A stretch of DNA of 64,000 bases from Armatimonadota bacterium (lineage in GTDB: Bacteria > Armatimonadota > SYMT01), in contig JAWLHY010000001.1 of NCBI GenBank assembly GCA_041690135.1, positions 1,284,865 to 1,348,864 of the forward strand, given 5' to 3'. Within the stretch, counting starts at the first letter, position 1; each line of letters starts with the position of its first letter. Under the pieces are notes generated by a model that worked only from the letters and a program-made list of their open reading frames with translations, ran no database searches and had not been told where the DNA came from. Below, in pieces: positions 2,741 through 21,170 of this stretch. The position numbers were made by a program, and so were the translations under genes.

Positions 2741-3952
2741 ATGCGTAAGAGAACGATCAAAGCACCACCGGATCTCCGTGCCCCCGACGCACTGGAGAGG
2801 GTCCGGCAGTTCCTCCAGGGCGAGCCTGACCGGGAAGCCCTCGGTGAGGCGCTCCAGGCCGCCGCCGAAGCGGGACACCTGGAGACGGTGCGCCTCCTGC
2901 TCCGGGCGGGTGCTACGCCGCGGGGCGTGACGGAGCTCTCTCCGCTGGGCGCCGCTGCGGCCGGCGGTCACACGGAAGTTGCCGCGGCCTTGCTGGAGGC
3001 GGGGGCCCCGGTCGATATCGGTTTCGGGGAACAGGCACTGACCCCGCTGATGCTTGCGGCCGGGCATGGGCACCTGCTCCTCGTGCGGCTCCTCATTGCC
3101 GCCGGAGCGGTCGTCGATGCCGTGGACGTCCGGGGCCGAACCGCATTGGCACATGCCAGCAACGGCCACTACGCGGAAATCGTGGAGTACCTCCAGCCTC
3201 TCACCGCCCCGGAGAACCGTCGCCTGCCGCGCCCCAAAGTGGACGATGCCCGCACCCGCCAGTTCCTCCTGGCTGCGGAAGCGGGGCGGCTGGGCGAGAT
3301 ACGGAAGCTCCTGGCGACCGGGATCGCCGTGGACGTGATGATGGACACTCCCCTCGCGGGCGCTACCGCGCTGATCCGGGCCGCCCGAGCCGGCCGGGAG
3401 CGGGTAGTGCAGGTCCTGCTGGAAGGCGGAGCTACCGTCGATGTGGCGCACGAGGAGAACGAATGGACCCCGCTGATCGCGGCCACCCAGGCGAAGGGCA
3501 ACCTGCCGGTCCTGCGTCTCTTGCTTGCGTCCGGAGCGCAGGTGGATGCGCGAGACGCGGAAGGACACACTCCCCTGATCCACGCCGCCGCGCACAAGCA
3601 TTTGGAGCAGGTCGAGGCGCTCCTGACGGCCGGGGCCGACGTGAACGCCCGGAGTAGCGGCGGAATGACGGCCCTCATGCACGCCGCCCGCACCGACCGT
3701 TGGGCCGGCACCCCGGCCGCCCTGGCGACCACCCTTCGAGTACTCCTGGCGGCTGGGGCCGAGGTGGAGGCTCAGGATGCCCGGGGCCGGACCGCCCTGA
3801 TGCACTCTGTAGAAACCGGAGACCGTCCCGACGTGGTGGTGCTCTTGCTGGAAGCCGGCGCCGAGCGCAGCATGCAGGAAGAGCAGGGACTGACGGCCGC
3901 GGATCTGGCCCGGAAGTACCACCGCCCGAAAGCGCTGGCGCTTTTAGTGTAG
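2741..3952 (+). CDS. Ankyrin repeat protein (about 11 repeats)
   Basis: Repeated TPLMxAAxxGHxxxVxLLxAGAxVx motifs throughout. ATG at 2741 is preferred over the TTG at 2735. Confidence 0.85.
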   Translation: MRKRTIKAPPDLRAPDALERVRQFLQGEPDREALGEALQAAAEAGHLETVRLLLRAGATPRGVTELSPLGAAAAGGHTEVAAALLEAGAPVDIGFGEQALTPLMLAAGHGHLLLVRLLIAAGAVVDAVDVRGRTALAHASNGHYAEIVEYLQPLTAPENRRLPRPKVDDARTRQFLLAAEAGRLGEIRKLLATGIAVDVMMDTPLAGATALIRAARAGRERVVQVLLEGGATVDVAHEENEWTPLIAATQAKGNLPVLRLLLASGAQVDARDAEGHTPLIHAAAHKHLEQVEALLTAGADVNARSSGGMTALMHAARTDRWAGTPAALATTLRVLLAAGAEVEAQDARGRTALMHSVETGDRPDVVVLLLEAGAERSMQEEQGLTAADLARKYHRPKALALLV

Positions 3953-4380: not shown

Positions 4381-5202
4381 ATGAATCGACGAAACCTCAC
4401 GCAAGCGCTGATCGCCGCCGGTGCGTTGTGGCTTTCGTGCTGCAGTCACGGCCCGAAGGAGGAACGAATGGCGGTTGGAGACAAACCCGCGCCCAGACCG
4501 GTTCCGGAGGCCGAAGTGAACGGATGCGTCCTTGACCCGGCCCGTTTGGGTCCGCTGAAAGACTGCATGCAAAGCTGTGGCCCCGATGAACCGCGAGACG
4601 AATGGAACCATAGCTGCCTCCATCCCCGTACGGTCGCCTACTCCTGCGGCCGGGTCGTCGTTCCCGGCGCCCCCAACCCGCACGACCACCCCGAGGGGGA
4701 GCAGGAACTGTGCCGGCGCCTCGCGGAGGCCGCGGCTCCACTGACCGACGGTTTCTGGGCGCTCGGATCGGAGTCGACGACTCCCTTTGTGCCGTTCTTC
4801 CTCACCGCCAACTCCAGAGAGATGGCCCAGGAGGCACCGACTGCTGAAGATATCCGGCGACTGTTCGGCGGGAGCATCTACCCCGCGGCCAAGATTACCC
4901 TGGAGCCACTGGCGGAGGAGGGAAGTTGGTGGCAATTCGTGCTCGATATGAAAGCCGGCGGCCCCCCGGGCTCCTACCAGCCCGGCAAGGATCCCACGGT
5001 CGACGCCGATATCGACCGGTGGCGGAACATGGTCCGATGGTTCCGCTCCCGCCAGGAGTTTCGCGGCGCCTACTACATTGAGATCGGCGGTTATCCCCTG
5101 GACGAGGAGCTCAATCAGGCCAGCCTCTTCCCCTGCCTCATCGTCGGGGTCACGGAGCGGGGCAGTCTCGCCGGCGTCTGTTCCTACGCAGTTCAGACTT
5201 GA
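4381..5202 (+). CDS. Hypothetical secreted protein or lipoprotein
   Basis: N-terminal signal-like region with basic residues followed by ALIAAGALWLSCCS. Balanced aromatic and acidic composition, unlike the Arg/Gly-rich antisense ORF on the other strand. No clear RBS. Confidence 0.5.
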   Translation: MNRRNLTQALIAAGALWLSCCSHGPKEERMAVGDKPAPRPVPEAEVNGCVLDPARLGPLKDCMQSCGPDEPRDEWNHSCLHPRTVAYSCGRVVVPGAPNPHDHPEGEQELCRRLAEAAAPLTDGFWALGSESTTPFVPFFLTANSREMAQEAPTAEDIRRLFGGSIYPAAKITLEPLAEEGSWWQFVLDMKAGGPPGSYQPGKDPTVDADIDRWRNMVRWFRSRQEFRGAYYIEIGGYPLDEELNQASLFPCLIVGVTERGSLAGVCSYAVQT

Positions 5203-7932: not shown

Positions 7933-10425
7933 TCACATGGCGCGGACCCGCCGCGGTGACGGATTGACCCGCCAGCGGACGTGGCTCAAGAGCTCCGCGG
8001 CGCCCCAGGTCGCCAGCACGGATACCGCCACTGCAATCGTCCCCGTGAGCCCCATGGGCGTGAGCCCCAACATCTGCCGGAGTGGGGGAAGCAGCACGGT
8101 AAGCACCTGCAACCCGATGCTCAGGATGATGATTCCATTCAGCACCCCATTCCGTTCGGGCGGGACGTTGACCCGGCGCGCCGGGTAGACGAACACGAGT
8201 TGCGCGATCGACTCGTAGAGGAAGACTACGGTGATCGTTGTTGCGATGCTCAACCCGAACTGTGGCATCAGGGCGAGGAGCGCCAGGCCGACTGCCGCTT
8301 TCACGACGCCGGTGGACACCACGAACCGCAGGGAAGGCGTGTCGAGGAGCGGGGCCGCGGGATCGCGGGGCGGCTGGCGCATCACTTCGCGGTTATGGTC
8401 CAGGGCCAGCGCGAGGGCCGGCGGTCCGTCCGCCACGATGTTGATCCAGAGGAGCTGCACCGCGGTCAGCGGCAACAGCAGCGCCCCGGCATCATCGCGC
8501 GCATTCAACAGCACCGCCGTGAAGGCGGCGATCATCACCAGCAGAACCAGCGCCAGGTTGGTCGAGAAGAGGAACCGGATGAATTTCTGGATGTTCTCAT
8601 AGATGCTTCGCCCTTCTTCCACCGCGGTGACGATTGTCGCGAAGTTATCGTCCTGAAGCACCAGGTCGGCCACTTCTCGGGTCACGTCACTGCCGCGTTG
8701 CCCCATCGCCACCCCGACATCCGAGCGCTTCAGGGCGGGGGCATCGTTCACCCCGTCGCCGGTCATCGCGACGATCTCCCCATCCGCCTGGAGCGCCTCC
8801 ACCAGCCGCAGCTTGTCTTCCGGCGCGACGCGGGCGAAGACGTTGATCTCCCGGGCAACCTGCCGGAGCGCCTCCGGGGTGAGCGACTGGAGTTCGTGGC
8901 CGGTGATGGCCCGAGCTGACTGGATACCGATCTCGCGCGCCACCACCAGGGCGGTTGCCGGGTGGTCGCCCGTGATCATCAGCACGCGGATCCCGGCTTC
9001 CTGCGCCCGGCGGATCGCATCCGGTACCTCGGGGCGCGGCGGGTCCCACAGGGAAACCAGCCCGGCAAACTCCAGGTCCTGTTCCCCCTCCCCTTCTCGC
9101 CAGGCCAGCGCCAACATGCGGTAGCCCTCGCCGGCGTGCTCGGCCACCTTCCGCTCCCAGTCCTTCCGTTCGGCCGGCGTGAGGCGGCACCGGTTCAGGA
9201 TGACCTCCGGCGCGCCTTTCACGTAACTCACCGGGCGGCCAGCTTCCTCCACCGTGACGCGCATGAATTTCCGGGCGCTATCGAACGGAACACTCGAGCG
9301 GCGGGGATACTCCTGTTGAAGGGTAAGCGGATCGGTCCCTTGCTCGCGGCTGTATTCCAAAAGCGACACCTCCAGCGGATCGCCTACCCCCGTACCCACT
9401 TCGGCGTCATTCGCCAGGACCATGGCGCGCAGGGCGCGTTCCGGATCGGGAGTGTCCAGGTCCCGCACTTGCATGCGGTTCTCGGTCAGGGTTCCCGTCT
9501 TGTCGGTGGCAATCACCGTCACCGATCCGAGGGCCTCTACGGCGACCATCCGCCGGACCAAGGCCTGGCGGCGCGACATGCGCTCGATCCCGAGCGCCAG
9601 CGTCAGGGTCAACACGGCCGGCAGGCCTTCCGGCACGGCCGCGACGGCCAGAGCGACGGCGAAGAAGAGAACTCGATTGAACTGGTCCAGGCCTTCGAAC
9701 AGCAGTCCGAGCGCCACCAGCACCACGGCCAGCGCCAGCACCCAGCGAGCGATCTGGTGACCGAAGGTCGTCAGGCGGCGCTCCAACGGTGTCTCGCCCG
9801 CCTCGATGCCGCCCAGCATCTGCGCCATGCGCCCCAGGGTGCTCTCCAGGCCGGTGCGCCGGATCTCGGCGATGCCCTTACCCCGCACCAGCAGGGTGCC
9901 GCTCAGAACTTCCTCGCCGGCCGGTTTCTCGACCGGCAGCGACTCTCCGGTAACCACGGCCTCATCCACCAGAACGCCGTCAGCTTCGTGAAGGAGCCCG
10001 TCTGCGGGGATGCGGTCGCCGGCCTCCAGCCGCACCAAGTCCCCCGGCACGAGTTCGCTGCTTGGAATGCGTGCCAGCGTGCCGTCGCGGTAGGTCCACA
10101 CCTGCGGCGCGGAGAGATCCTGCAAACGGCTGAGAGCCGCCTCGGCCCGATACTCCTGGAATACTCCGAGCCCCGCGTTCAACAGAAGGATGAAGGCGAT
10201 GGCAATCGACTCCACCGGTAACCCGTGAGCGCCTTCCTGGATCCAGGCGAACAGGTCGAACGCGAGGGCAAACAACAGGATATAGATGAGCGGGCTCTGG
10301 AACTGGCGCAGAAACCGCCGCCACATCGGTTCCGACTGCTCCTCGGGAAGCGCGTTCGGTCCGTATCGCTCGCGCCTCGCCCGGGCTTCCTCGCTGCTCA
10401 ACCCCTGCCGCATGATCCTCTCCAC
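7933..10425 (-). CDS. Cation-transporting P-type ATPase (HAD superfamily; Ca2+/Mg2+-type)
   Basis: DKTGTLT phosphorylation motif, TGDGVNDAPALK hinge motif and about 10 TM segments. Confidence 0.95.
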   Translation of the reverse strand: MERIMRQGLSSEEARARRERYGPNALPEEQSEPMWRRFLRQFQSPLIYILLFALAFDLFAWIQEGAHGLPVESIAIAFILLLNAGLGVFQEYRAEAALSRLQDLSAPQVWTYRDGTLARIPSSELVPGDLVRLEAGDRIPADGLLHEADGVLVDEAVVTGESLPVEKPAGEEVLSGTLLVRGKGIAEIRRTGLESTLGRMAQMLGGIEAGETPLERRLTTFGHQIARWVLALAVVLVALGLLFEGLDQFNRVLFFAVALAVAAVPEGLPAVLTLTLALGIERMSRRQALVRRMVAVEALGSVTVIATDKTGTLTENRMQVRDLDTPDPERALRAMVLANDAEVGTGVGDPLEVSLLEYSREQGTDPLTLQQEYPRRSSVPFDSARKFMRVTVEEAGRPVSYVKGAPEVILNRCRLTPAERKDWERKVAEHAGEGYRMLALAWREGEGEQDLEFAGLVSLWDPPRPEVPDAIRRAQEAGIRVLMITGDHPATALVVAREIGIQSARAITGHELQSLTPEALRQVAREINVFARVAPEDKLRLVEALQADGEIVAMTGDGVNDAPALKRSDVGVAMGQRGSDVTREVADLVLQDDNFATIVTAVEEGRSIYENIQKFIRFLFSTNLALVLLVMIAAFTAVLLNARDDAGALLLPLTAVQLLWINIVADGPPALALALDHNREVMRQPPRDPAAPLLDTPSLRFVVSTGVVKAAVGLALLALMPQFGLSIATTITVVFLYESIAQLVFVYPARRVNVPPERNGVLNGIIILSIGLQVLTVLLPPLRQMLGLTPMGLTGTIAVAVSVLATWGAAELLSHVRWRVNPSPRRVRAM

Positions 10426-10773
10426 CCTTCCGGTCCATCCCTCTCGGTGGTGACCCTCGCCGCCGGCGAGGCGGTACCCCGCAGTCTTTACCCACTCCCA
10501 CCAGCGTGAAGCACTGAGAATGGGTCATGCGGAATGCCTGACCGACTACGGCCTCCAGCCACTAACAGAATGCCCGGTCTGTGCACCGGTGACGCGTCGC
10601 CATTGGCAGCGATGCAAATCGGATCTTGTGATCGGCTACAAAGCGGGGTTTGGGATGCCTTCCGAGGCAGATTTGGCGGATCTGGGTAAACGCCATACAG
10701 GAGCACTGGTGGGCGGCCGCCCTCTTCCTACACTGGGCGGTCCGGAAGTCCCCCGGTACCGGCGATTCAAGAT

Positions 10774-12438
10774 ATGACAGGATCCGTTTTCCATGACCTG
10801 GCGCTGCTGCTGTTATTGGCGGTCGGGGTGGGCGCCGCGGGCGTTCTCCTCCGACAACCGCTGATCATCTCCTTCATCGTGGTGGGGATCGCCGTCGGCC
10901 CCGCGGGGCTGGGCTGGACCAGCGCACAGCAAGAGATCGAGCTCCTCGCCACCTTTGGGATCGCCCTGCTGCTCTTCGTGGTCGGCCTCAAGCTGGACCT
11001 GCACCTGATCCGCACCACGGGTCCTGTCGCCCTGGCCACCGGATTAGGACAGGTCGCGTTCACCAGCATCCTCGGCTATTTCCTGGCGCGGGCACTGAGC
11101 ATGGCGCCCATCACCGCGCTTTACGTCGCTGTGGCCCTCACCTTCTCCAGTACGATCATCATCGTGAAGCTCCTCTCGGACAAGCGCGAGATCGACTCGC
11201 TCCACGGCCGTATCGCGATGGGGTTTCTCATCGTGCAGGACGTTCTGGTGGTGCTGGTGATGATCCTGCTCTCGGCCGTCGGCGCCGGAAGCGAAGCTAC
11301 AAGCACGGGACGCGCCATTCTGCTGATGGCGGTGAAGGGTGGCGTATTCCTGGCAGCTATCGCCTTGCTGATGCGGTTTGTGCTTCCGCGACTGTTGCAC
11401 CGGCTGGCTTATTCGCAGGAGTTGCTCATTCTGTCGGCCGTCGCCTGGGCTATAGCTCTGGCGGCGGCTGGGGATTTGCTCGGCTTCAGCAAGGAAGTCG
11501 GCGCCTTTCTCGCGGGGGTGTCCCTCGCTTCGACCGGTTACCGGGAGATCATCGGGGCCCGGCTCCAGGGTCTGCGGGACTTTCTGCTCCTCTTCTTTTT
11601 TGTCCACCTGGGGGCGCAGATGGAGTTGCGCCACCTGGGCGCGCAGTGGGTCCCCGCTCTCGTCCTCTCCGCTTTCGTGCTGATCGGCAACCCACTGATC
11701 GTGCTGGCGATCATGGGGTACATGGGCTACCGCCGGCGCACGAGCTTCCTGGCGGGCCTAACGGTGGCCCAGATCAGCGAGTTCTCCTTGATCCTGGTAG
11801 CCCTCGGGATGAACCTGGGCCATGTGGGGATGGAGACCACGGGGCTGGTGACGGTGGTGGGTCTGATCACCATCGGCTTGTCTACCTACATGATCCTCTA
11901 CTCGCATCTCCTCTACGACTGGCTAGCCCCGTGGCTGCGAGTCTTCGAGCGGCATGTTCCCCATCGGGAAGAGGACGCGGGAGCGGTGGCGGTGGAGGAG
12001 CCGGTGGAGGTGATTCTCTTCGGATTGGGCCGGTACGGATGCCGGATCGGAATGGGACTGGTGCGCAACGGACTGAAAGTCCTGGGTGTCGACTTCGATC
12101 CGGAGGCGGTGCGCAATTGGCAGGAACTCGAACTCCTGGCGCAGTATGGGGACGCGGAAGACCCGGAGTTTGCGGCCCATCTACCGCTGGCTCATGCCCG
12201 GATGGTGGTGTGTGCCGCGCCGCGCCTGGATACGAACCTCACGCTGCTCCGGGGTCTGCAGCATCATGGCTACCGGGGACTGGTAGTGCTCACCGCCCAT
12301 ACCTCCGCGGATGCGGAAGTGCTGAAGGGAGCCGGTGCCGACCTGGTGCTCCTTCCGTTCGCGGACGCGGCGGATCAGGCGGTGGATATCCTGGCCGCCC
12401 CCGCGGACCTCGCCCGCCAGTGGCAACGCGCGGCGTGA
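10774..12438 (+). CDS. Kef-type (CPA2) monovalent cation:proton antiporter with C-terminal TrkA-N/RCK-like domain
   Basis: N-terminal Na_H exchanger-like TM region (IISFIVVGIAVGPAGLGW) and a C-terminal Rossmann-like region (ILFGLGRYG). Confidence 0.9.
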   Translation: MTGSVFHDLALLLLLAVGVGAAGVLLRQPLIISFIVVGIAVGPAGLGWTSAQQEIELLATFGIALLLFVVGLKLDLHLIRTTGPVALATGLGQVAFTSILGYFLARALSMAPITALYVAVALTFSSTIIIVKLLSDKREIDSLHGRIAMGFLIVQDVLVVLVMILLSAVGAGSEATSTGRAILLMAVKGGVFLAAIALLMRFVLPRLLHRLAYSQELLILSAVAWAIALAAAGDLLGFSKEVGAFLAGVSLASTGYREIIGARLQGLRDFLLLFFFVHLGAQMELRHLGAQWVPALVLSAFVLIGNPLIVLAIMGYMGYRRRTSFLAGLTVAQISEFSLILVALGMNLGHVGMETTGLVTVVGLITIGLSTYMILYSHLLYDWLAPWLRVFERHVPHREEDAGAVAVEEPVEVILFGLGRYGCRIGMGLVRNGLKVLGVDFDPEAVRNWQELELLAQYGDAEDPEFAAHLPLAHARMVVCAAPRLDTNLTLLRGLQHHGYRGLVVLTAHTSADAEVLKGAGADLVLLPFADAADQAVDILAAPADLARQWQRAA

Positions 12439-12467
12439 TTATAGAGACAGTGGGTGCCGCAATCGGG

Positions 12468-12839
12468 TCAGCGGCACTCCACGCACAGTCCCGTTAACTC
12501 GGTGTGGTAACCGGTCACCTGGAAGCCGCTTGTTTCCACCGCCGCCTGCACCACCTCCTGCGGCAGCGACACCAGTACGTCCACCAGTTTTCCGCACCGG
12601 TGGCACACTGCATGGTCGTGCCGGTCGGTGCGCCGATCGTACTGCGTGACTTCCCCGACTCGGATCTCCTGCAGGTGACCGTCCTCCGCCAGGGCGCTGA
12701 GGTTGCGGTAGACCGTCGCATACCCGATCCCAGGAAGCACCTGGCGTACGCGCTCATAGACCTGCGCCGCCGTCGGGTGATCGCCGGATCGTTCCACGAT
12801 CTCGAGGATCGCCTGACGCTGTTTCGTCTGTCGCATCAT
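12468..12839 (-). CDS. Fur family transcriptional regulator (Fur/Zur/PerR-like)
   Basis: TKQRQAILEIV winged-helix region and HHDHAVCHRCGKL..CxxC metal-binding motifs. Confidence 0.9.
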   Translation of the reverse strand: MMRQTKQRQAILEIVERSGDHPTAAQVYERVRQVLPGIGYATVYRNLSALAEDGHLQEIRVGEVTQYDRRTDRHDHAVCHRCGKLVDVLVSLPQEVVQAAVETSGFQVTGYHTELTGLCVECR

Positions 12840-13339
12840 CGGACAGACTCTAGGAAATAGACTTGCATCATCCTGGAGAGCGTTCTACCCAACTGGAGTG
12901 GTATGCCGCGCACGTTCCCGGCGGCCCGCTTCTTGGGGGTCCCATTCACCAGAACATTATACGCTTTCTGGGCTCCGATCTTTTTGCCGCTAAATGTGAA
13001 GTCGGTGCTGGTAGTCCATGAGCAGTGGGCGCCCGTCTTCTGCAGGGTGGTTCCGGCACAGGGCGGCTGGTCCCATGATGTCACTACGGAGTCCCAACGC
13101 TATCGTGGGGACCTTCCACACATCATGGGAGTTCTCCGGTACTTGGCGGTCGAGCCCGCATCACAGCATGGGTGACCGCCGGAGTTGCCGTCCCTTTCTG
13201 TTCCGTCTCCACCCTTGGCTCCCTCAGGGTCTTCTATGCTCCGGGAGACTTTCATCGACTTTTTCTATTCGACACACGTATCTGGTGGATCTAGACTTAG
13301 CATGGCCCCCGCGCAAACAGACGCCCGGGGTGGAAACGG

Positions 13340-14485
13340 GTGGAAGCCATGCGTTCAGCGGTCGAGACGGCGGAGAGAGTGGCGCGCGAGGCACTCGCGC
13401 CCTGGGCGGAGCATGTGGACCGGGAGGGTCGCTGGCCGGCGGAGTCTCGGGCGGCGCTCGGTGGAGCCGGGTTGCTTGGGCTCGCTGTCCCCGAAGCCTA
13501 TGGAGGCCTCGGTGCTTCTCCGACCGTGGTGTCGGCGGTCGTGCGCACGCTGGCGGAGAGTTGTGCCTCCACGGCGATGATCTTCATGATGCACGTGTGC
13601 GCGCAGCAGGTGATCGCACAGGCGGAGGCGTTCCCCTTTCGTGAGGAGATTCTCCGGGCGATGGCCCGCGGGGAGCACCTCAGCACCCTGGCCTTCAGCG
13701 AGAAGGGCTCGCGGAGCCACTTCTGGGCGCCGGTGAGCCAGGCCGTGGCCGACGGAGACATCCATCGGCTCAGTGCGGAGAAGTCCTGGGTCACCAGCGC
13801 GGGACAGGCGGACAGTTACGTCGTGTCCACCCGCAGCACCGCGGCAGCGGAGATGACCGCTTCCACGCTTTACTATGTCCCGAACGGCGCCGCCGGGCTC
13901 AGCGTGGCGGGCTCTTGGTCTGGCCTCGGCCTTCGCGGGAATGCCAGCGCGCCGATGCGGCTCAAAAACGTGTCGGTGCCCGCTTCGCACCGCTTGAGCG
14001 GCGAGGGCGAAGGGTTCGGTGCGATGCTCAGCGTGGTCCTCCCCTGGTTTCAGCTCTGCAGCGCGTCCGTTTCCGTGGGGATCGCCGCGGCGGCGACGGA
14101 GGCCACCCGGCGCCACCTGATGGCCTCCAAACTGGAGCACCTGGACCAATCCCTGGCCTCCCTGATGAACCTGCGCGCGCGGTTGGCCCAGATGCAGATC
14201 GCCGTCGACACCCAGCGCGTGTTCCTGAACCACGTGGCGGGCCGGATGGAGAATCCCGGCCCCGACACGATGCTGGCAGTGCTGGAGAGCAAAGCCGCCG
14301 CCGCCGAGGTGGCGCTCGAGGTGACCGATCTGGCGATGCGGACCTGCGGAGGCGCCGCGTTTAGCCGGCACCTGGGTGTGGAGCGGAATTTCCGTGATGC
14401 CCGCGCCGGGGCGGTGATGGCCCCCACGACCGACGTACTGCATGATTTCATCGGCAAGGCACTCCTTGAGATGCCGCTGTTCTGA
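13340..14485 (+). CDS. Acyl-CoA dehydrogenase-fold flavoenzyme
   Basis: GLLGLAVPEAYGGLGAS and a C-terminal RTCGGAAFSRHLGVERNFRDARAGAVMAPT pattern typical of the ACAD family. Confidence 0.9.
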   Translation: MEAMRSAVETAERVAREALAPWAEHVDREGRWPAESRAALGGAGLLGLAVPEAYGGLGASPTVVSAVVRTLAESCASTAMIFMMHVCAQQVIAQAEAFPFREEILRAMARGEHLSTLAFSEKGSRSHFWAPVSQAVADGDIHRLSAEKSWVTSAGQADSYVVSTRSTAAAEMTASTLYYVPNGAAGLSVAGSWSGLGLRGNASAPMRLKNVSVPASHRLSGEGEGFGAMLSVVLPWFQLCSASVSVGIAAAATEATRRHLMASKLEHLDQSLASLMNLRARLAQMQIAVDTQRVFLNHVAGRMENPGPDTMLAVLESKAAAAEVALEVTDLAMRTCGGAAFSRHLGVERNFRDARAGAVMAPTTDVLHDFIGKALLEMPLF

Positions 14486-14523
14486 TGCCGCTCTTTTGAA
14501 GCCGCTTACTTGAGGGTACCCCT

Positions 14524-15357
14524 ATGGACCGTCCGATCTTGATTGGCGCCGTCGCCTACGACCAGCGTGTGGTCCCGATCTGGGAAGGCATGCGCGACTA
14601 CTTCCGCGAGGCCGGCATGCCGATCGACTACGTCCTCTACTCGAACTACGACCGGCAGGTAGAGGCCCTCCTGGACCGGCAAATCGATATCGCCTGGAAC
14701 ACCAACCTGGCCTGGCTGAAGGTCTGTCGCCGCACCGACAACCGCTGCCGGGCGCTCGCGATGCGGGATGTGGACGCCGATTTCAAGACCGTTTTCGTGG
14801 CGCGGACGGACAGCGGCATCCAGTCGCTCGCCGATATTCATGGCAAGCGTCTGGCCCTCGGCTCCGCCGACTCCGGTCAGGCCGCCATCCTTCCCATTGA
14901 GTTTCTCCGCGAAGCCGGCGTGGATGCCGAGCGAGAGTGCCGGGTGTCCCGGTTCAACCTGGACGTGGGCAAACACGGCGACACGGGCACCAGCGAGCTG
15001 GAAGTTCTGCGCGCCCTCCGTGACGGGGAGGCGGATGCGGGCGCCATGGCGGACTCTACCTGGATCCGGCAGGTCACCGAAGGACGGGTGGACCCGACGC
15101 AGGTGCGCGCGATCTGGACCTCTCCCGGCTACTGCCACTGCAACTTCACGGTCCTGGAAGATTTCCCCGAAGAAGTCGGGCGCAACTGGACCGGCACTCT
15201 CCTGACGATGACCTACGACAATCCTCGCTGGCGGGAGTTGATGGACCTGGAGGGCCTCAAGCGCTGGCTGGAGGCCACGCCGGAGGTGATGAAGGGCTAC
15301 GATAGCCTCTGGGAAGCGGTGGAGCGCCAGGGCCTGACCCGCAACTGGCCGTCGTGA
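14524..15357 (+). CDS. PhnD/SsuA/transferrin-family substrate-binding-like protein without a signal peptide
   Basis: PhnD-like N-terminus (LIGAVAYDQRVVPIWEGMRDYFREAGMPIDYVLYSNYDRQVEALLDRQIDIAWN). No hydrophobic leader. GAGGGTA RBS. Confidence 0.75.
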   Translation: MDRPILIGAVAYDQRVVPIWEGMRDYFREAGMPIDYVLYSNYDRQVEALLDRQIDIAWNTNLAWLKVCRRTDNRCRALAMRDVDADFKTVFVARTDSGIQSLADIHGKRLALGSADSGQAAILPIEFLREAGVDAERECRVSRFNLDVGKHGDTGTSELEVLRALRDGEADAGAMADSTWIRQVTEGRVDPTQVRAIWTSPGYCHCNFTVLEDFPEEVGRNWTGTLLTMTYDNPRWRELMDLEGLKRWLEATPEVMKGYDSLWEAVERQGLTRNWPS

Positions 15358-16631
15358 GTTCCCGAATGGAAGAGTTTCCGCAGCCGGCAGCGCTGGTCGA
15401 GGGCGGCGCACTGGAAGTGGGCAACGGCCTGCTGATGCTTCTTCGCGAAGCCATGGAGCCGCTCCCGCCGGACGCCGTGGTGGCCGTACGCGCCTCCCAC
15501 CCCACGGTGGCTCACGACCTGCCCGCCTGGTGCCGGGTGATGGCGCATACGTACATGGGTGCGGCGTCCGGCCCGGATGGAACGGTCTACTACTTCCGGA
15601 AGAGCCCCTTCCTCCCCATCGCCACCGAAGAGCGGCCGGACTGGGGGGTGCGGATGCCCCGTCGCGACAACGGGGAACTCCACACACGGGATTGGATGGT
15701 CGGCCGGGTGGAGGCGGTGCCGGACCGGGCGACCACCACCACCGGATTCGCGCCGCGTGGAGCCGTAGTAGAGCAGGGCGCGCCGGCTTTCGACTTCACC
15801 ATCAACGAGCGCTCCGCGGTGTGGGCGGCGGAGGTCGCGGATCTCTACGAGCAGGCGACGGCCAACCAGTGGGACGCCTCTCGCGATATTCCGTGGGACC
15901 GCCTGGAGCCGCTGCCGGAACCGCTGGAGCGGGCTGTCTGCCAGTTGATGACGTTTCTGACGGAGAACGAGTACTCTGCTCTCTACGTCCCCGCGAAGTT
16001 CGTCCCGCGCATCAACCCGCAGTTCAATGAAGTCGTGATGTTCCTCTGCACGCAGATGATGGATGAATCACGGCACATCGAGGCTTTCACCAAGCGTGCC
16101 CTGGCCAACGGCGGCGGGCTCCAGTACTCGGCCGCGTCAACCCAGCTCAGCCTGAAGACGCTGTTCGATCAACACGACTTCACCTCCGCCTCCTTCCTCC
16201 TCTCCGTGCTTGGCGAGGGGACCTTCCTGGATCTCCTGCGGTTCATCGAGACGCACGCGCCGGACCCGGTAACCGCCGAGATCTGTCGCCGCGCGCGCGT
16301 GGACGAGACGCGCCACGTGCATTTCGGGATGGCCCACATGCGCTACTACCTCGCGCAGGACCCGGCCAACTATGAGCACCTCGAACGGGCGGTGCGGGAG
16401 CGGGCCGCGTTCATGCAGTCGGTGACGGAGGTGAGCCCGCGGGTCCAGGAAGCGCTGGCGATCCTCGCGGCGGGTGGCTTGAACGCGGACCGCCTGCCGG
16501 AAGGGCTGGCGAAAGTGCGGGCTCTCGTGAGTGAGATGCACGAGCACCGCATGCGCCGTCTCTTGGCCGCCGGCTTCTCCGCGGAGCAGGCAGTCGAGAT
16601 CTCCCGCCTCCACACCCCGAACTTCATGTAA
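15354..16631 (+). CDS. TusA-like N-terminal domain fused to a ferritin-like diiron-carboxylate domain
   Basis: GTGA start/stop overlap with the upstream gene. Two E...ExxH pairs (ENEY...DESRHIE and GEG...DETRHVH) with about 32-36 residue spacing. Confidence 0.7.
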   Translation: MSSRMEEFPQPAALVEGGALEVGNGLLMLLREAMEPLPPDAVVAVRASHPTVAHDLPAWCRVMAHTYMGAASGPDGTVYYFRKSPFLPIATEERPDWGVRMPRRDNGELHTRDWMVGRVEAVPDRATTTTGFAPRGAVVEQGAPAFDFTINERSAVWAAEVADLYEQATANQWDASRDIPWDRLEPLPEPLERAVCQLMTFLTENEYSALYVPAKFVPRINPQFNEVVMFLCTQMMDESRHIEAFTKRALANGGGLQYSAASTQLSLKTLFDQHDFTSASFLLSVLGEGTFLDLLRFIETHAPDPVTAEICRRARVDETRHVHFGMAHMRYYLAQDPANYEHLERAVRERAAFMQSVTEVSPRVQEALAILAAGGLNADRLPEGLAKVRALVSEMHEHRMRRLLAAGFSAEQAVEISRLHTPNFM

Positions 16632-16692
16632 GCGGTCTTCGCCACTCCGGCCCCGAAGGAGCCTCAATCCCCGGCCCCCTCGGGGGCTGCAG

Positions 16693-16728
16693 CCTTCCAA
16701 CCTTCAACCTTCAACCTTCAACCTCTCC
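16693..16728. repeat. CCTTCAA heptamer microsatellite (about 5 units)
   Basis: ccttccaa ccttcaa ccttcaa ccttcaa cctctcc, directly upstream of the tRNA-Gln promoter. Confidence 0.5.
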
Positions 16729-16735
16729 AAAGGTA

Positions 16736-16765
16736 TTGACATCCCCCCGCGCGAGCCGCTACTAT
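16736..16765 (+). promoter_or_regulatory. Sigma70-like promoter for tRNA-Gln (TTGACA-N18-TACTAT)
   Basis: Perfect -35 TTGACA at 16736-16741 and a -10 TACTAT at 16760-16765. The tRNA 5' end lies 10 nt downstream. Confidence 0.5.
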
Positions 16766-16775
16766 ACAACCACGT

Positions 16776-16848
16776 TGCCGGATAGCTCAGTTGGCAGAGC
16801 GACTGACTCTGGATCAGTAGGTCCTAGGTTCGAGCCCTAGTCCGGCAG
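16776..16848 (+). tRNA. tRNA-Gln (anticodon CUG)
   Basis: Hand-folded cloverleaf: acceptor TGCCGGA/TCCGGCA (U1:A72), D-stem GCTC/GAGC, anticodon stem ACTGA/TCAGT with loop CTCTGGA, T-loop TTCGAGC, discriminator G. No encoded CCA. Confidence 0.9.
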
Positions 16849-16997
16849 TGTTTCCCACCCCATTGGATTGACCAGGAGCGCCCCTTCCCGCTGCGCCCCG
16901 ACGTCGATCGCAAAAGAGGCCGGGCAGGTCGCGACCCTCGCGTCTGTCCGGTTTTTTCACGTCTAGTGGACCGAGGAATTGGAGCAGGGAGACGAGA

Positions 16998-18725
16998 GTG
17001 AGCCAGGGACAAGAAGTGGAGAAGACGGTAACTTCGGCGGACTCCGCGGGTCGTCGCGAAGTGCCGACCGACTACATCCGGGAAGCGATCAAGGAAGACC
17101 TCCGCAACGGACGGTTCGACCGCGTGCACACGCGCTTTCCTCCGGAGCCGAACGCCTACCTGCACATCGGGCACGCGAAGGCCGTCTGGATCGACTACGG
17201 CATCGCGCTGGACTTCGGCGGGTTGTTCAACCTGCGCTTCGATGATACGAACCCGGTGCGCGAAGATCAGGAGTTTGTGGACGGCATTATCGAGGACGTG
17301 CGCTGGCTCGGTGCCGACTGGGGTGACCGGCTCTGCTTCGCATCCGACTACTTCGAGCAGATGTACGCGTGGGCTCTTGACCTGATCCGCAAGGGTAAGG
17401 CCTACGTGTGCGATCTTACGGCGGAGGAGCTGAGCGCCACCCGCGGCACCCTCACCACTCCGGGCCAGGAAAGTCCCTTCCGGAACCGCAGCGTGGAGGA
17501 GAACCTGGACCTGTTCGCGCGCATGCGGGCCGGCGAATTTCCCGACGGCGCCCGGACGCTCCGCGCGAAGATCGACATGGCCTCGCCGAACATGGTCATG
17601 CGCGATCCCGTGATGTACCGCATCCTTCATACCAAGCACCATCGCCAGGGCGATAAGTGGTGCATCTACCCGACCTACGACTGGGCCCACGGCCTCGAGG
17701 ATTCCATCGAGGGGGTCACCCACTCCCTCTGCTCGCAGGAGTACGAGATCCACCGGCCGCTCTATGACTGGTTCCTGGATGAACTGGACATCTATCATCC
17801 GCGCCAGATCGAGTTCGCGCGCCTGAACCTGACCCACACCGTGATGAGCAAGCGCCGCTTCATCGAGCTGGTGAACGGAGGGCACGTCCAGGGCTACGAC
17901 GATCCCCGGCTGCCGACGCTCGCCGGGCTGCGCCGCCGCGGCTACACGCCCGAAGCGATTCGGGAGTTCTGCCGTCGGATCGGCGTCTCTAAGACGGATA
18001 GCTGCGTGGAAGTGGCGTACCTGGAAGACTGCGTCCGCGAGGACCTGAACCGGTGGTCGCCCCGCGTGATGTCTGTGCTGGACCCGCTGAAGGTGGTGCT
18101 GGTGAACTACCCCGAGGGCCAGACGGAAGAGCTCGACGTCATCAACAACCCCGAGGATCCCGCCGCCGGAACCCGCAAGGTGACCTTCGCCCGCGAGCTG
18201 TACATCGAGCGCGACGACTTCCGCGAGGAGCCGCCGCCCAAGTTCTTCCGGCTGGCTCCCGGTCGTGAGGTCCGGCTGCGGAACGCCTACCTGGTCCGGT
18301 GCGTGGACGTGATCAAGGACGCGGAAGGCAACGTCACCGAGGTCCACTGCACCTACGATCCGGAGACCCGCGGTGGGGATGCGCCGGACGGACGCAAGGT
18401 AAAGGCTACCCTGCACTGGCTCGCGGCCCCGGCAGCCGTTCCGGCCGAGGTCCGGCTCTACGACCACCTGTTCGTGAAACCGGATCCGGACGACGTGGAG
18501 CCCGGCCAGACCTACTTCGACAATCTCAACCCGAACTCGCTGAAGGTGGTCTCGGGATTTGTGGAACCGGCCGTAGCCGAAGCGGCCCCCGGCACGCGCT
18601 ACCAGTTCGAGCGCCTGGGTTACTTCTGCGTGGACAAGGAATCCACGCCGGAGAGACCCGTCTTCAACCGGACAGTTACCCTCCGCGATACCTGGGCCAA
18701 AATCGAAAAGCGCACGGGCAAGTAA
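16998..18725 (+). CDS. glnS: Glutamine--tRNA ligase
   Basis: [16 protein letters not shown] (HIGH) and VMSKR (KMSKS) class I motifs. Length and pattern fit GlnRS. Confidence 0.95.
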
Positions 18726-18852
18726 CCGCCTGATCGTATTCGTGACGGCCGACCACCGCCCCAACGGAGGAGGCGCAGGTCCGGAGCACAAAACCTATGG
18801 GCGTGAAGCGCAAGACGGACTTGCGCTTCACGCCCTTTGCATTTGGCACAGC

Positions 18853-20823
18853 ATGAAACCTCTCCCTCTCGCTTATCGCCAGGTCCACCTCGACTTCCAC
18901 ACTTCGGAACTGATCACCGGGATCGGCCGCGACTTCGATGCCGGCCGCTTCGCGCGCACGCTCAAAGAAGCGCACGTTAATTCCGTGACCTGCTTCTCCC
19001 GCTGCCACCACGGGATGATCTACCACGACACCCGGTTCCCCGCGCGGCATCCGCACCTGGAAGTCAACCTGCTCCAGGAGCAGATCGAGGCCTGTCACGC
19101 GGAGGGCATCCGGGTGCCGATCTACATCAGCGTGGGCTTCGACGAGTTCATGGCCCGGCGCCATCCGGAATGGGTGGAACTGGGCGGGGACGGAAAGGTC
19201 CGGGGCGCGGCGCCGCTGGAGGCGGGCTGGCGCAAACTCTGTCTCAATACCCCCTACATCGATTACGTCTCCGAGCAGACGCAGGAAGTGCTGTCCCTCT
19301 TCCCCACGGATGGGCTGTTTTTCGACATCATCCACCAGGGGCCGTGCTGTTGTCGCTGGTGCATGGAGGGCATGCAGGCGGAGGGCGTCGACCCGGAAGA
19401 CGAAGGTCAGCGGAAGGCCTACGCGCGAGAAGTGCTGAACCGCCTCCGGACACGCATCACCCGGGAGGTGCGCGAGGTCAACCCGGACTGCCTGATCTTC
19501 TGGAACAGCGGCCACGTGGACCCCACCTTCCGGCCGGTGCTCCACACCTTCTCCCACCTGGAGATCGAGAGCCTCCCCAGTGGCGGGTGGGGCTATGATC
19601 ATTTCCCCACTTCGGTCCGCTACGCCCGCAACCTGGGCCTCGACCACCTGGGGATGACCGGCAAGTTCCACAAGACCTGGGCCGGTTTCGGGGAGTTCAA
19701 GAACCCTCCGGCCCTGGAGTACGACTGCTTCACCGCCCTGGCCGAAGGCAGCAAATGCTCCATCGGCGACCAGCTCCATCCCAACGGGGAGCTGGACCCC
19801 GCCACGTACGAGCTCATCGGGGGCGTCTATGCGCAAGTGGCAGCCCGCGAGCCGTGGTGCGCCGGGGCGAAGGCGGTGACGGAGATCGCCATCTTCAATC
19901 CGGAGGCCATTGGGGTCCACGATGGCCGGGTCGATACCTCCGCGGGTGGCGCGCACCGGATGCTGGTGGAGGCCCACTACCAGCACGACATGGTGGACGA
20001 GGAGATGGACTGGTCTCGCTACCGGGTCCTGATCTTACCGGACAAAATCCGCCTCCACGACGCGCTCGCCGCGAAGTTCCGGGCTTATCTCGCCCAGGGA
20101 GGCAGCCTCATCGCCTCCCATCTCTCGGGGTTGGCCGCGGACCGCGACGAGTTTGTTCTGCCGGAACTCGGCGTGACCTACCGCGGTGTAGCGCCCTTTT
20201 CACCGGACTACGTGGCGCCGGGACCGGAGATCGCCGCGGGCATCCCGGCGAGCCAGCACGTGATGTACGAGCGCGGCCTGGAGGTGGAGACGAAAGGCGC
20301 GGAGGAGTTGGCACGCGTTTGGCACCCCTATTTCAACCGCACCTACGCGCACTTCTGCAGCCACCGTCATACCCCTGCGGAGAAAGAGAGCCCCTTCCCG
20401 GCTGTAACCCGGAACGGGCGGGTGATCTACTTCGCCCATCCCCTCTTCGCCGCGTTCAAACAGCACGGCCTTCGGGTCTATAAGCAGCTCTTCCTGAACG
20501 CCCTTCGCCTGCTGCTTCCCGAGCCCCTGATCGCGACCGACGCCCCCTCCACGGCCCGGATCTCGCTCGCCCGCCAGGACAATCCGGTCCGTACGATCGT
20601 CCATCTCCTCCACTACATCCCGGAACAGCGCTACCGCGAGACGCCCATGGTCGAGGAAGCGCTGCCGCTCTTCAACGTGAGCCTGGCCGTCCGCCTGGAC
20701 CACGAACCCGCCCGCGTTTACCTCGCCCCGGATGGCGCTTCCCTCCCTTTCACCTGGTCCAACGGCAGGGTTCACCTCACCGTCCCTGAAGCTCGCGGCC
20801 ACGTGATGGTGGTGTTCGAATGA
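18853..20823 (+). CDS. Putative glycoside hydrolase (beta-galactosidase/GH42-like TIM barrel with trimerisation-like domain)
   Basis: MKPLPLAYRQVHLDFHTSE... N-terminus, as in PVC-clade proteins annotated beta-galactosidase trimerisation-domain protein. Function is inferred from memory. Confidence 0.7.
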   Translation: MKPLPLAYRQVHLDFHTSELITGIGRDFDAGRFARTLKEAHVNSVTCFSRCHHGMIYHDTRFPARHPHLEVNLLQEQIEACHAEGIRVPIYISVGFDEFMARRHPEWVELGGDGKVRGAAPLEAGWRKLCLNTPYIDYVSEQTQEVLSLFPTDGLFFDIIHQGPCCCRWCMEGMQAEGVDPEDEGQRKAYAREVLNRLRTRITREVREVNPDCLIFWNSGHVDPTFRPVLHTFSHLEIESLPSGGWGYDHFPTSVRYARNLGLDHLGMTGKFHKTWAGFGEFKNPPALEYDCFTALAEGSKCSIGDQLHPNGELDPATYELIGGVYAQVAAREPWCAGAKAVTEIAIFNPEAIGVHDGRVDTSAGGAHRMLVEAHYQHDMVDEEMDWSRYRVLILPDKIRLHDALAAKFRAYLAQGGSLIASHLSGLAADRDEFVLPELGVTYRGVAPFSPDYVAPGPEIAAGIPASQHVMYERGLEVETKGAEELARVWHPYFNRTYAHFCSHRHTPAEKESPFPAVTRNGRVIYFAHPLFAAFKQHGLRVYKQLFLNALRLLLPEPLIATDAPSTARISLARQDNPVRTIVHLLHYIPEQRYRETPMVEEALPLFNVSLAVRLDHEPARVYLAPDGASLPFTWSNGRVHLTVPEARGHVMVVFE

Positions 20824-20885
20824 GGGTGATCGCAGTTGGCAATAATTGCCATCAAGAGGTAGACTCTGATCCAGGAGGAAGATCC

Positions 20886-21170
20886 ATGGCGGTCGAAACA
20901 ATCAACTTCTCCTTACCGGAGCCACTCAAGCGTTTCGTTGATGAGCGAGTAGCCGGAGGCGGTTACAGCAGTGCGAGCGAGTACTTGCGCGAACTGATTC
21001 GAAAGGATCAGGAACGGCAAGACCGGCAGCACTTGCTGGTCGAAAAACTGGAAGCATTGCTGCTCGAAGGGTTGAATAGCGGCGAAGCAATCGAATGGAC
21101 GCCGGAATACCGGGCTCAACGTCGGGAACGTCTGATTGCGAGAGCTAAAGCGGAAGGTTGCCGGCCGTAG
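20886..21170 (+). CDS. parD: ParD-family type II antitoxin (RHH)
   Basis: INFSLPEPLKRFVDERVAGGGYSSASEYLRELIRKDQER. GGAGGAAG RBS. Confidence 0.8.
   Translation: MAVETINFSLPEPLKRFVDERVAGGGYSSASEYLRELIRKDQERQDRQHLLVEKLEALLLEGLNSGEAIEWTPEYRAQRRERLIARAKAEGCRP

Follow-up and report, generated by a model that had tools for sequence, protein, structure and literature searches.

Three co-directional genes at positions 13340 to 16631 of a 64,000-nt stretch of Armatimonadota DNA (contig JAWLHY010000001.1; this whole stretch is called the window, and all coordinates are positions in it) form a di-iron variant of a catalogued but functionally uncharacterised cassette and belong to no characterised system. 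Gene 1 encodes a flavoprotein of the acyl-CoA dehydrogenase (ACAD) fold, gene 2 a PhnD-like, substrate-binding-protein-like (SBP-like) protein, and gene 3 a fusion of a TusA-like to a ferritin-like domain. The trio is probably (at roughly 0.6) a cytosolic oxidation module, the counterpart of Rv1679–Rv1680–Rv1681 in which a third enzyme that uses O2 at a di-metal centre takes the place of a radical S-adenosylmethionine (rSAM) enzyme. An initial annotation, made from the sequence alone, had proposed an oxidative small-molecule module; with an intact di-metal site, an ACAD that lacks its catalytic Glu and a syntenic trio, this remains the best reading.

The conservation of the trio was assessed in 80 related loci that were fetched, of which those with at least 2.6 kb of flank on both sides were taken as informative. 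The homologues of gene 3 form more than 3000 clusters at 90% identity, and relatives occur in at least 579 GTDB species (species representatives). Where gene 3 carries the TusA-like domain, the SBP-like gene is adjacent in 51 of 53 informative loci, and the ACAD gene is present too in 49 of 53. The partner genes accompany paralogues without this domain, which occur in Latescibacterota and Gemmatimonadota, in 0 of 4 loci. The common order is ACAD–SBP–gene 3, with gene 3–ACAD–SBP in Bacillota and Dehalococcoidia, and the trio recurs in Planctomycetota, Actinomycetota, Chloroflexota, Acidobacteriota, Bacillota, Myxococcota, Bdellovibrionota and others. The adjacency of the three genes is far beyond chance, because those 49 loci come from more than 10 phyla. 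A Pfam census of the 113 immediate flanking genes returned no family in more than four loci and no electron-transfer flavoprotein (ETF), ABC transporter, reductase or regulator, and all-versus-all clustering of open reading frames (ORFs) from 83 loci identified only the trio families and antisense shadow ORFs as conserved. The trio is a real, self-contained unit, and the combination of ACAD-like, signal-less PhnD-like and TusA/di-iron proteins singled out in the initial annotation does recur across phyla.

A search with a di-iron-type actinobacterial SBP led to a Streptomyces 'Rv1680 family SBP-like protein' and, through it, to a second version of the cassette. In the Streptomyces and Pseudonocardiaceae loci, the ACAD matches NF049984 with 608.7 bits, the SBP-like protein NF049985 with 495.7 bits, and the third protein, an rSAM enzyme, NF049973 with 520 bits. 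This third protein ('Rv1681 family') has 327 aa, and its start overlaps the end of the SBP gene. Among 80 metagenomic loci of the rSAM type, the SBP-like gene was found in 65 and both partners in 49, the other 15 being short or cut by a contig end; the genes run in one direction or, in a second clade, converge. The di-iron gene is absent from all 80 loci. The third gene takes one of two forms, TusA-like::di-iron or TusA-like::radical-SAM, and no sampled locus has both.

The two third genes have more in common than their position. The N-terminus of gene 3 resembles the ~75–95 residues that precede the cluster motif (YTNFDCNLxCDYCC) of the rSAM proteins, with a common pattern of GLL..L....GD.VAV...P...L.AWCR.TGN.L....R.V.R.G. 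Alignment of the two N-terminal profiles with hhalign gave a probability of 97.1% (E 6.3e-11); comparison of the full-length profiles gave 94.4%, from the N-terminus only. Pfam TusA also returned repeated sub-threshold matches at the N-terminus of five rSAM proteins. Judged by these profiles, gene 3 and the Rv1681-family rSAM enzymes have a homologous N-terminal domain joined to unrelated catalytic domains. A separate likeness between residues 131–172 of gene 3 and the rSAM C-terminus (BLAST E 0.73) was unsupported by the profile comparison and was discarded.

The partner proteins of the two versions are likewise related. Actinobacterial di-iron-type SBPs share 65–69% identity with the Streptomyces rSAM-type SBP and ~50% with the median SBP of their own di-iron type. 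Mean identities across types are 0.48 for the SBP and 0.45 for the ACAD, compared with 0.54 and 0.48 within types. Actinobacterial di-iron-type members of the gene 2 family reach 390 bits on NF049985, and NF049984 and NF049985 are also the best matches for the gene 1 and gene 2 counterparts in four other phyla. By these measures, the ACAD and SBP-like proteins of the di-iron and rSAM versions are orthologous. The partners being orthologous and the N-terminal domain common to both, there has been at least one in-situ exchange of the third gene, an unexpected result, in which both partner proteins and the N-terminal domain were retained.

The best-catalogued member of the rSAM version is Rv1678–Rv1681 of Mycobacterium tuberculosis (families NF049986, NF049984, NF049985 and NF049973). 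Its counterparts of genes 1 and 2 are homologous to ours, in the same order and as tightly coupled; the third gene encodes a TusA-like::rSAM protein there and a TusA-like::ferritin-like di-metal oxidase here. Unlike Rv1678–Rv1681, the trio has no Rv1678-type or DoxX-like gene, and its genes 1 and 2 score below the NCBIfam cutoffs. Rv1679 is named 'possible FadE16' (PMC5017210), and Rv1680 carries the label 'putative phosphonate transporter component', given on grounds of structural similarity (PMC8562490); Rv1681/MoeX appears in the literature as a urinary antigen. The 'molybdopterin biosynthesis' and 'phosphonate transporter' labels of the actinobacterial cassette rest on weak similarity. The initial annotation could not match the trio to a described system, which holds to the extent that no characterised system fits; the relationship of genes 1 and 2 to the catalogued Rv1679 and Rv1680 families had escaped it, and the rSAM counterpart of gene 3 was beyond its view.

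Accessory genes differ between the versions. The actinomycete rSAM-type cassette has a DoxX/DoxD-like membrane gene upstream (21 of 82 rSAM-type loci), and a few rSAM-type loci add redoxin and DsbD-TM genes; the accessory genes lie at 3251–5845 in L087 and at 4870–5811 in L088. A membrane gene of the Rv1678 family (NF049986) was seen only in L087, L088 and L112; in Streptomyces it too lies upstream. The di-iron-type cassette is without DoxX, Rv1678-type, redoxin and DsbD-TM genes.

Gene 3 (15354..16631, + strand; from its ORF and Pfam matches) has no NCBIfam match above cutoff, so that no well-characterised family is assigned to it; sub-threshold matches were to TusA, DUF455, AurF and R2lox. 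AurF PF11583 stays below its gathering threshold of 29.6 bits, and R2lox NF006200 gives 31.6 bits against a cutoff of 194. An AlphaFold2 (AF2) model based on 40 homologues is confident, with a predicted local distance difference test score (pLDDT) of 90.6 and a predicted template modelling score (pTM) of 0.82. It contains three parts: a beta-alpha-beta-alpha-beta-beta domain (residues ~12–83; 15387..15602, +), a linker/cap (residues 84–155; 15603..15818, +), and a helical bundle that corresponds to the ferritin-like di-metal carboxylate oxidase domain (residues 156–425 plus stop; 15819..16631, +).

The N-terminal domain matches PF01206 below threshold (23.9 bits, cutoff 28.6; E 3.7e-5; residues 27–80), and its modelled order of strands (13–18, 42–47, 66–73, 76–82) and helices (26–34, 52–62) has pLDDT values of 88–94. 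It shares with TusA this fold and the 'D(I/L)P..C' motif that contains the equivalent of E. coli Cys56. Unlike TusA, it scores below the Pfam cutoff, is fused to redox catalytic domains, and has Gly23 (in 'VGNGLL', 37 residues before 'AWC') at the position of the CPxP persulfide Cys. No Cys occupies that position in the 40 homologues or in the rSAM versions. The Cys of the conserved 'PAWCR' (Cys60) is kept; we take Gly23 and the 'AWC' Cys to map to E. coli TusA Cys19 and Cys56. Because the persulfide Cys is absent, canonical sulfur carriage by this domain seems unlikely, and the role of TusA as a sulfur carrier put forward in the initial annotation loses its footing, with only the Cys56 equivalent retained.

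The linker/cap (pLDDT 74–92) contains the motifs PDWG, DW..G and GFAPRGAVVE, and its invariant columns in the family alignment (A1) are D113, G117, P123, G131, F132, P134, R135, G136 and E140. The catalytic core is a four-helix bundle with ligands in the order E, ExxH, E, ExxH. All six di-metal ligands (E206, E238, H241, E288, E318, H321) are invariant in the 40 homologues and align with those of 6d9f, so the ferritin-like di-iron assignment is upheld by an intact site of four carboxylates and two His. Phe245 stands at the R2 tyrosyl position, a feature shared with R2lox and R2c, and an invariant tail, LHTPNFM, is present at the C-terminus. Structurally, gene 3 comes closest to a VlmB homologue, R2lox and aldehyde-deformylating oxygenase (ADO). 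Unlike R2lox and ADO, gene 3 has ~155 extra N-terminal residues and different partners.

Gene 2 (14524..15357, +) encodes a relative of the Rv1680 family with the PhnD/SsuA fold. It matches PF12974 with 127 bits, cyanobacterial PhnD and PtxB rank highest among its relatives in the PDB, and NF049985 is covered from 2 to 268 of 268 profile positions at 358.6 bits, below the cutoff of 400. The NF049985 match begins at residue 4 and the ORF is not extendable upstream, which leaves no room for a signal peptide; the protein was correctly described as signal-less and is predicted to be cytosolic. The same fold and Pfam family are found in the PhnD, PtxB and SsuA binding proteins. Unlike these, gene 2 has neither a signal peptide nor transporter genes, and no ABC permease or ATPase genes were enriched among the 113 flanking genes. 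In the HMMER alignment, on which this comparison depends, 'SADSGQA' lies opposite 'SESSTSG' of 7s6g and 'DRASTSS' of PtxB, placing ADSGQ at the S-T-S anion-binding loop; phosph(on)ate or sulfonate binding of the PhnD type, as initially suggested, would then be unsupported. The invariants of the family are instead D147-x-G-K-H-G-D-T-G-x-S-E158 and H205-C206, new motifs (GKHGDTG, HC) that do not correspond to known PhnD ligand residues.

Gene 1 (13340..14485, +) encodes a relative of the Rv1679/FadE16 family with the three-domain ACAD fold (PF02771, PF02770 and PF00441, all above cutoffs). Its best NCBIfam match by a wide margin is NF049984 (Rv1679 family), with 454.6 bits against a cutoff of 600. 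The motifs that contact flavin adenine dinucleotide, S120-E121-x-G123 and K148-S149-x-V151-T152, look intact, to our reading. The catalytic motif has been replaced: 'IYEGT' of 3pfd, 5ol2 and 2vig aligns to V359-M360-A361-P362-T363, and A361-P362 is invariant in 102 ACAD family sequences of both cassette versions. At the position of the Glu of the isovaleryl-CoA dehydrogenase type, located by manual alignment and not by a tool, no Glu is present either; it lies near the invariant P235 and F237. No ETF or beta-oxidation genes were found among the 113 flanking genes or in the annotated loci. Because the catalytic Glu is absent, gene 1 probably encodes a flavoprotein with an activity other than alpha,beta-dehydrogenation, and the invariant Ala-Pro together with the census bears out the original statement that this is not a fatty-acid locus. 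PDB 7p98, deposited as a 'short-chain acyl-CoA dehydrogenase' and one of the top structural relatives of gene 1, likewise lacks the canonical base, with 'YTG' for 'YEG'.

The canonical Glu is also absent from ACAD-fold enzymes that are not dehydrogenases, such as DszC/SfnB, 3-sulfinopropanoyl-CoA desulfinase and VlmH-type N-hydroxylases. Unlike these, gene 1 scores far below the family cutoffs (118 bits against 430.9 for SfnB TIGR04022; 78.6 bits against 850 for DszC NF043015), although the desulfinase (E 2e-39) and SfnB (E 4e-34) are among its secondary NCBIfam matches. It is nearer to true ACADs (Acyl-CoA_dh_1; PDB matches with E ~1e-36) than to the two-component monooxygenase type.

Taken as a cytosolic oxidation module, the trio could work as follows. 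The Cys-less TusA-like domain would serve in docking or hand-over, coupling the third enzyme to the ACAD/SBP pair; this role is suggested because the domain tracks with the partner genes and because two unrelated catalysts have it. The signal-less PhnD-fold protein might hold or present a small metabolite, or might itself be an enzyme, and the ACAD-fold flavoprotein would perform a flavin redox step other than acyl-CoA alpha,beta-dehydrogenation. With O2, the di-metal enzyme would catalyse the H-abstraction or oxidation for which the Rv1681 version would rely on the 5'-deoxyadenosyl radical. The exchange of third genes would then be an in-situ displacement like those of other pairs of O2-dependent and O2-independent enzymes. 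AcsF/BchE, HemF/HemN, and the class I R2 versus the class III activase of ribonucleotide reductase (RNR) are such pairs, and the analogy is one of logic only. In these pairs too, a di-iron/O2 enzyme and an rSAM enzyme fill the same slot in a conserved gene set. Unlike them, the third enzymes of the trio and of the Rv1681 cassette have a common N-terminal domain, and the two versions show no aerobic/anaerobic sorting.

Several points weigh against this proposal. Our search of the literature on Rv1678–Rv1681, fadE16, moeX and TusA-like/ferritin-like combinations found no functional study. That the di-iron and rSAM enzymes are functionally equivalent is deduced from gene position and a common domain, and the two could instead act at separate steps on one scaffold; docking is likewise a putative role of the TusA-like domain. 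Aerobic Streptomyces and Mycobacterium have the rSAM type, and some MAGs (metagenome-assembled genomes) of anaerobic lineages, one of Kuenenia and others of Dehalococcoidia, have the di-iron type. As the versions do not sort by lifestyle, a description of one as an 'O2-independent backup' may be too simple. The mutual exclusivity of the third-gene types applies to neighbourhoods of ~6–10 kb, and the cassette encodes no reductase for the di-metal centre.

A broader proposal, to which we give slightly less than an even chance, is that both forms represent an unrecognised, widespread pathway in which the TusA-like domain recruits either catalyst to make or destroy an undescribed metabolite or protein-derived cofactor. 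If true, this would be a new O2-dependent/O2-independent displacement and would provide a first function for 'MoeX', 'FadE16' and Rv1680. The current M. tuberculosis names (FadE16 dehydrogenase, Rv1680 transporter component, MoeX molybdopterin) are probably all misleading. A very common, unannotated TusA-like::ferritin-like architecture is tied here to two fixed partner proteins, and the recognition domain and genomic slot common to a di-metal oxidase and an rSAM enzyme provide a concrete, testable mechanistic hypothesis. The link to Rv1679–Rv1681 also makes the function of both versions approachable by experiment. For annotation there is a warning as well: TusA, PhnD and ACAD are here names of folds without their usual functions.

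Among other explanations of the chemistry, organosulfur scavenging, which the initial annotation had named first, appears unlikely, although every part of the trio has relatives in sulfur metabolism. The SBP would bind a sulfonate or sulfinate, the SfnB/DszC-like ACAD and the di-iron enzyme would oxidise it, and the TusA-like domain would take the sulfur. The secondary matches of gene 1 to the desulfinase and SfnB and the TusA-like fold in gene 3 are consistent with this scheme. So are some neighbours: an ssu-like ABC/luciferase cluster adjoins the trio in Fimbriiglobus, a sulfatase gene does so in Bacillus sp. EB600, and 21 rSAM-type loci have the DoxX/DoxD-like membrane gene. However, the persulfide Cys of TusA is missing in both the di-iron and the rSAM versions, the scores for SfnB (118 versus 431) and DszC (79 versus 850) lie far under their cutoffs, and the S-T-S anion-binding loop appears not to be kept in the alignment. 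Nor was any sulfur-assimilation family enriched among the 113 flanking genes. Rfam searches at the gathering threshold returned no match, and no SAM riboswitch, in seven loci of Bacillota, Dehalococcoidia and Actinomycetota, and only a tRNA-Gln, with no riboswitch or leader match, in positions 10000–19000 of the window.

It is quite unlikely that the cassette serves protein maturation, with the rSAM or di-iron enzyme recruited through the TusA-like domain to install a cofactor or radical on the SBP-like protein or the ACAD. This would resemble the action of the rSAM enzyme QhpD and the flavoprotein QhpG on QhpC, or that of RNR R2 or the class III activase. A dedicated domain common to two unrelated catalysts would fit recruitment to a protein partner, and conservation of the D-x-G-K-H-G-D-T-G-x-S-E loop of the SBP-like protein is exceptional; neither this loop nor the H-C pair belongs to the PhnD ligand site. 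The nearest named relatives of the rSAM enzyme include protein- and peptide-modifying maturases, and the invariant LHTPNFM tail recalls the docking of the R2 tail on R1. Against this, the rSAM enzyme, at 327 aa with few extra Cys, is without the SPASM/twitch domain for auxiliary clusters, Phe is found at the R2 tyrosyl position, and a glycyl-radical motif is not evident.

Valanimycin-type N-oxidation is decidedly improbable. In this scheme, a VlmH-like ACAD-fold flavin N-hydroxylase and a VlmB-like di-iron oxidase would act on an amine, hydroxylamine or hydrazine. VlmB, which oxidises a hydrazine to an azoxy group (PMC11705231), offers the closest structure to gene 3. The identity to this VlmB-type di-iron azoxy synthase/'protein 60' (PDB 6d9f, 8wvr) is only 20%, however, VlmB is without the TusA-like domain and the ACAD/SBP partners, and the valanimycin pathway genes were not found here. 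The hints towards sulfur chemistry and those towards N-oxidation are both weak.

We consider very improbable the further proposal of the initial annotation, a peroxide- or metal-stress operon governed by the divergent Fur/PerR-like regulator. This regulator gene (12468..12839, − strand; PF01475, 84.6 bits) is separated from gene 1 by a common region of 500 bp (12840..13339, read from the sequence), and its top NCBIfam match is a Thermus-type PerR, at 110 bits against a cutoff of 200. The divergent arrangement and the PerR match fit the proposal, as does the presence of an AhpC/TSA gene within the trio of L005, L006 and L011 and, in four rSAM-type loci, of upstream redoxin or DsbD-like genes. 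Yet in L007, the Armatimonadota MAG that is the closest relative found, the trio has no Fur-family gene beside it, and the gene is also missing from this position in 79 of the 80 related loci, lying ~9 kb away in the remaining one; it occurs in 0 of 82 rSAM-type loci. A search for inverted repeats or palindromic boxes found none in 12840–13339, the sole pair (13373–13396) being inside gene 1. The redoxin link is sporadic, and a thiol-redox association (AhpC, redoxin, DsbD) was rejected as confined to a few loci. The Fur-family gene is a chance neighbour and not a conserved part of the module, and the metal- or peroxide-responsive control that had been assumed is unsupported. The regulator could equally be attributed to ion-homeostasis genes on its other side, a P-type cation ATPase (7933–10425, −) and a Kef-type Na+/H+ exchanger with a TrkA-N domain (10774–12438, +), both upstream of it.

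It is scarcely credible that the three genes are ordinary and unrelated, coding for a beta-oxidation ACAD, the binding protein of a phosphonate transporter and a ferritin, as the default names 'possible acyl-CoA dehydrogenase FadE16' and 'phosphate/phosphite/phosphonate ABC transporter substrate-binding protein' imply. Synteny and motifs already contradict this reading: three-gene synteny in more than 10 phyla, no ABC permease/ATPase or ETF found nearby, no signal peptide in gene 2, no catalytic Glu in gene 1, and in gene 3 an oxidase-type di-metal site with a large cap region and not one of the ferritin/Dps type.

The organisation of the locus is as the initial annotation described it. The four ORFs lie where it placed them, and the 38-bp gap, GAGGGTA, GTGA overlap and 500-bp divergent region were all read directly; its domain calls were upheld by Pfam and NCBIfam profiles. 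The gap extends from the gene 1 stop (TGA, 14483–14485) to the gene 2 ATG at 14524, and the Shine-Dalgarno-like GAGGGTA (14512..14518, +; read from the sequence) ends 5 nt before that ATG. The gene 3 GTG at 15354 overlaps the gene 2 stop as GTGA (15354–15357). The NCBI product for gene 3 (P0001, 421 aa) begins at ATG 15366, which would give an 8-bp gap and no overlap; the longer N-terminus is kept in homologues such as P0003, and the ends of genes 2 and 3 also overlap in the related loci L007 and L003. For gene 1, ATG 13349 is an alternative start to GTG 13340. The only sigma-70-like site in the intergenic region is TCGACA-17-TAGACT (13269–13297, +), ~45 bp upstream of gene 1. L007 is 80% identical in nucleotide sequence across 13364–16632; homology begins at 13364, and the intergenic sequence is not conserved. 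None of the four window proteins matched the anti-phage defence models of PADLOC.

Some loci depart from the common architecture. In a Limnocylindrales-type lineage (L005 5813–7696; also L006 and L011), the trio is interrupted between the SBP-like gene and gene 3 by a transglutaminase-core gene and an AhpC/TSA-redoxin gene. L015 and L016 have a full-length TusA-like::di-iron gene with neither ACAD nor SBP within 10 kb, and a second, separate stretch that matches the TusA-like domain lies upstream (9306–9518 in L015, 7915–8475 in L016); they may represent a different sub-architecture. The paralogues without the TusA-like domain in Latescibacterota and Gemmatimonadota (L049, L050, L057 and L067, match ~10001–11035; L086, match 1219–2211) begin to match at query residue 85–95. 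Four of these TusA-less loci have an ORF of ~123 aa immediately after the di-iron gene, and clustering gave one conserved small-ORF family at the same offset in five. Two metagenome proteins could hint at physical association of the partners, and both were rejected as fusions. In P0031 (499 aa), considered as a Rosetta-stone fusion, residues 1–80 of the SBP run straight into gene 3, probably as a deletion or assembly chimera; P0248 (426 aa) is a single read-through from the ACAD C-terminus into the SBP, probably through a lost stop codon. Neither can serve as evidence.

Downstream of the trio, a 693-aa GHL6/GH42M-like putative glycoside hydrolase (18742–20823) shares 4 bp with an ORF of 116 aa (20820–21170) that has no Pfam match at E <= 1e-5. 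Closer to the operon, a heptamer tandem repeat (CCTTCAA x4.4, 16693–16724) lies between the operon stop and a strong sigma-70-like site, TTGACA-18-TACTAT (16736–16765). This site directly precedes tRNA-Gln(CTG) (16775–16849), which is followed by a glutaminyl-tRNA synthetase gene (16998–18725). In L007, this tRNA-Gln/glutaminyl-tRNA synthetase block stands on the other side of the trio, upstream and in inverted orientation.

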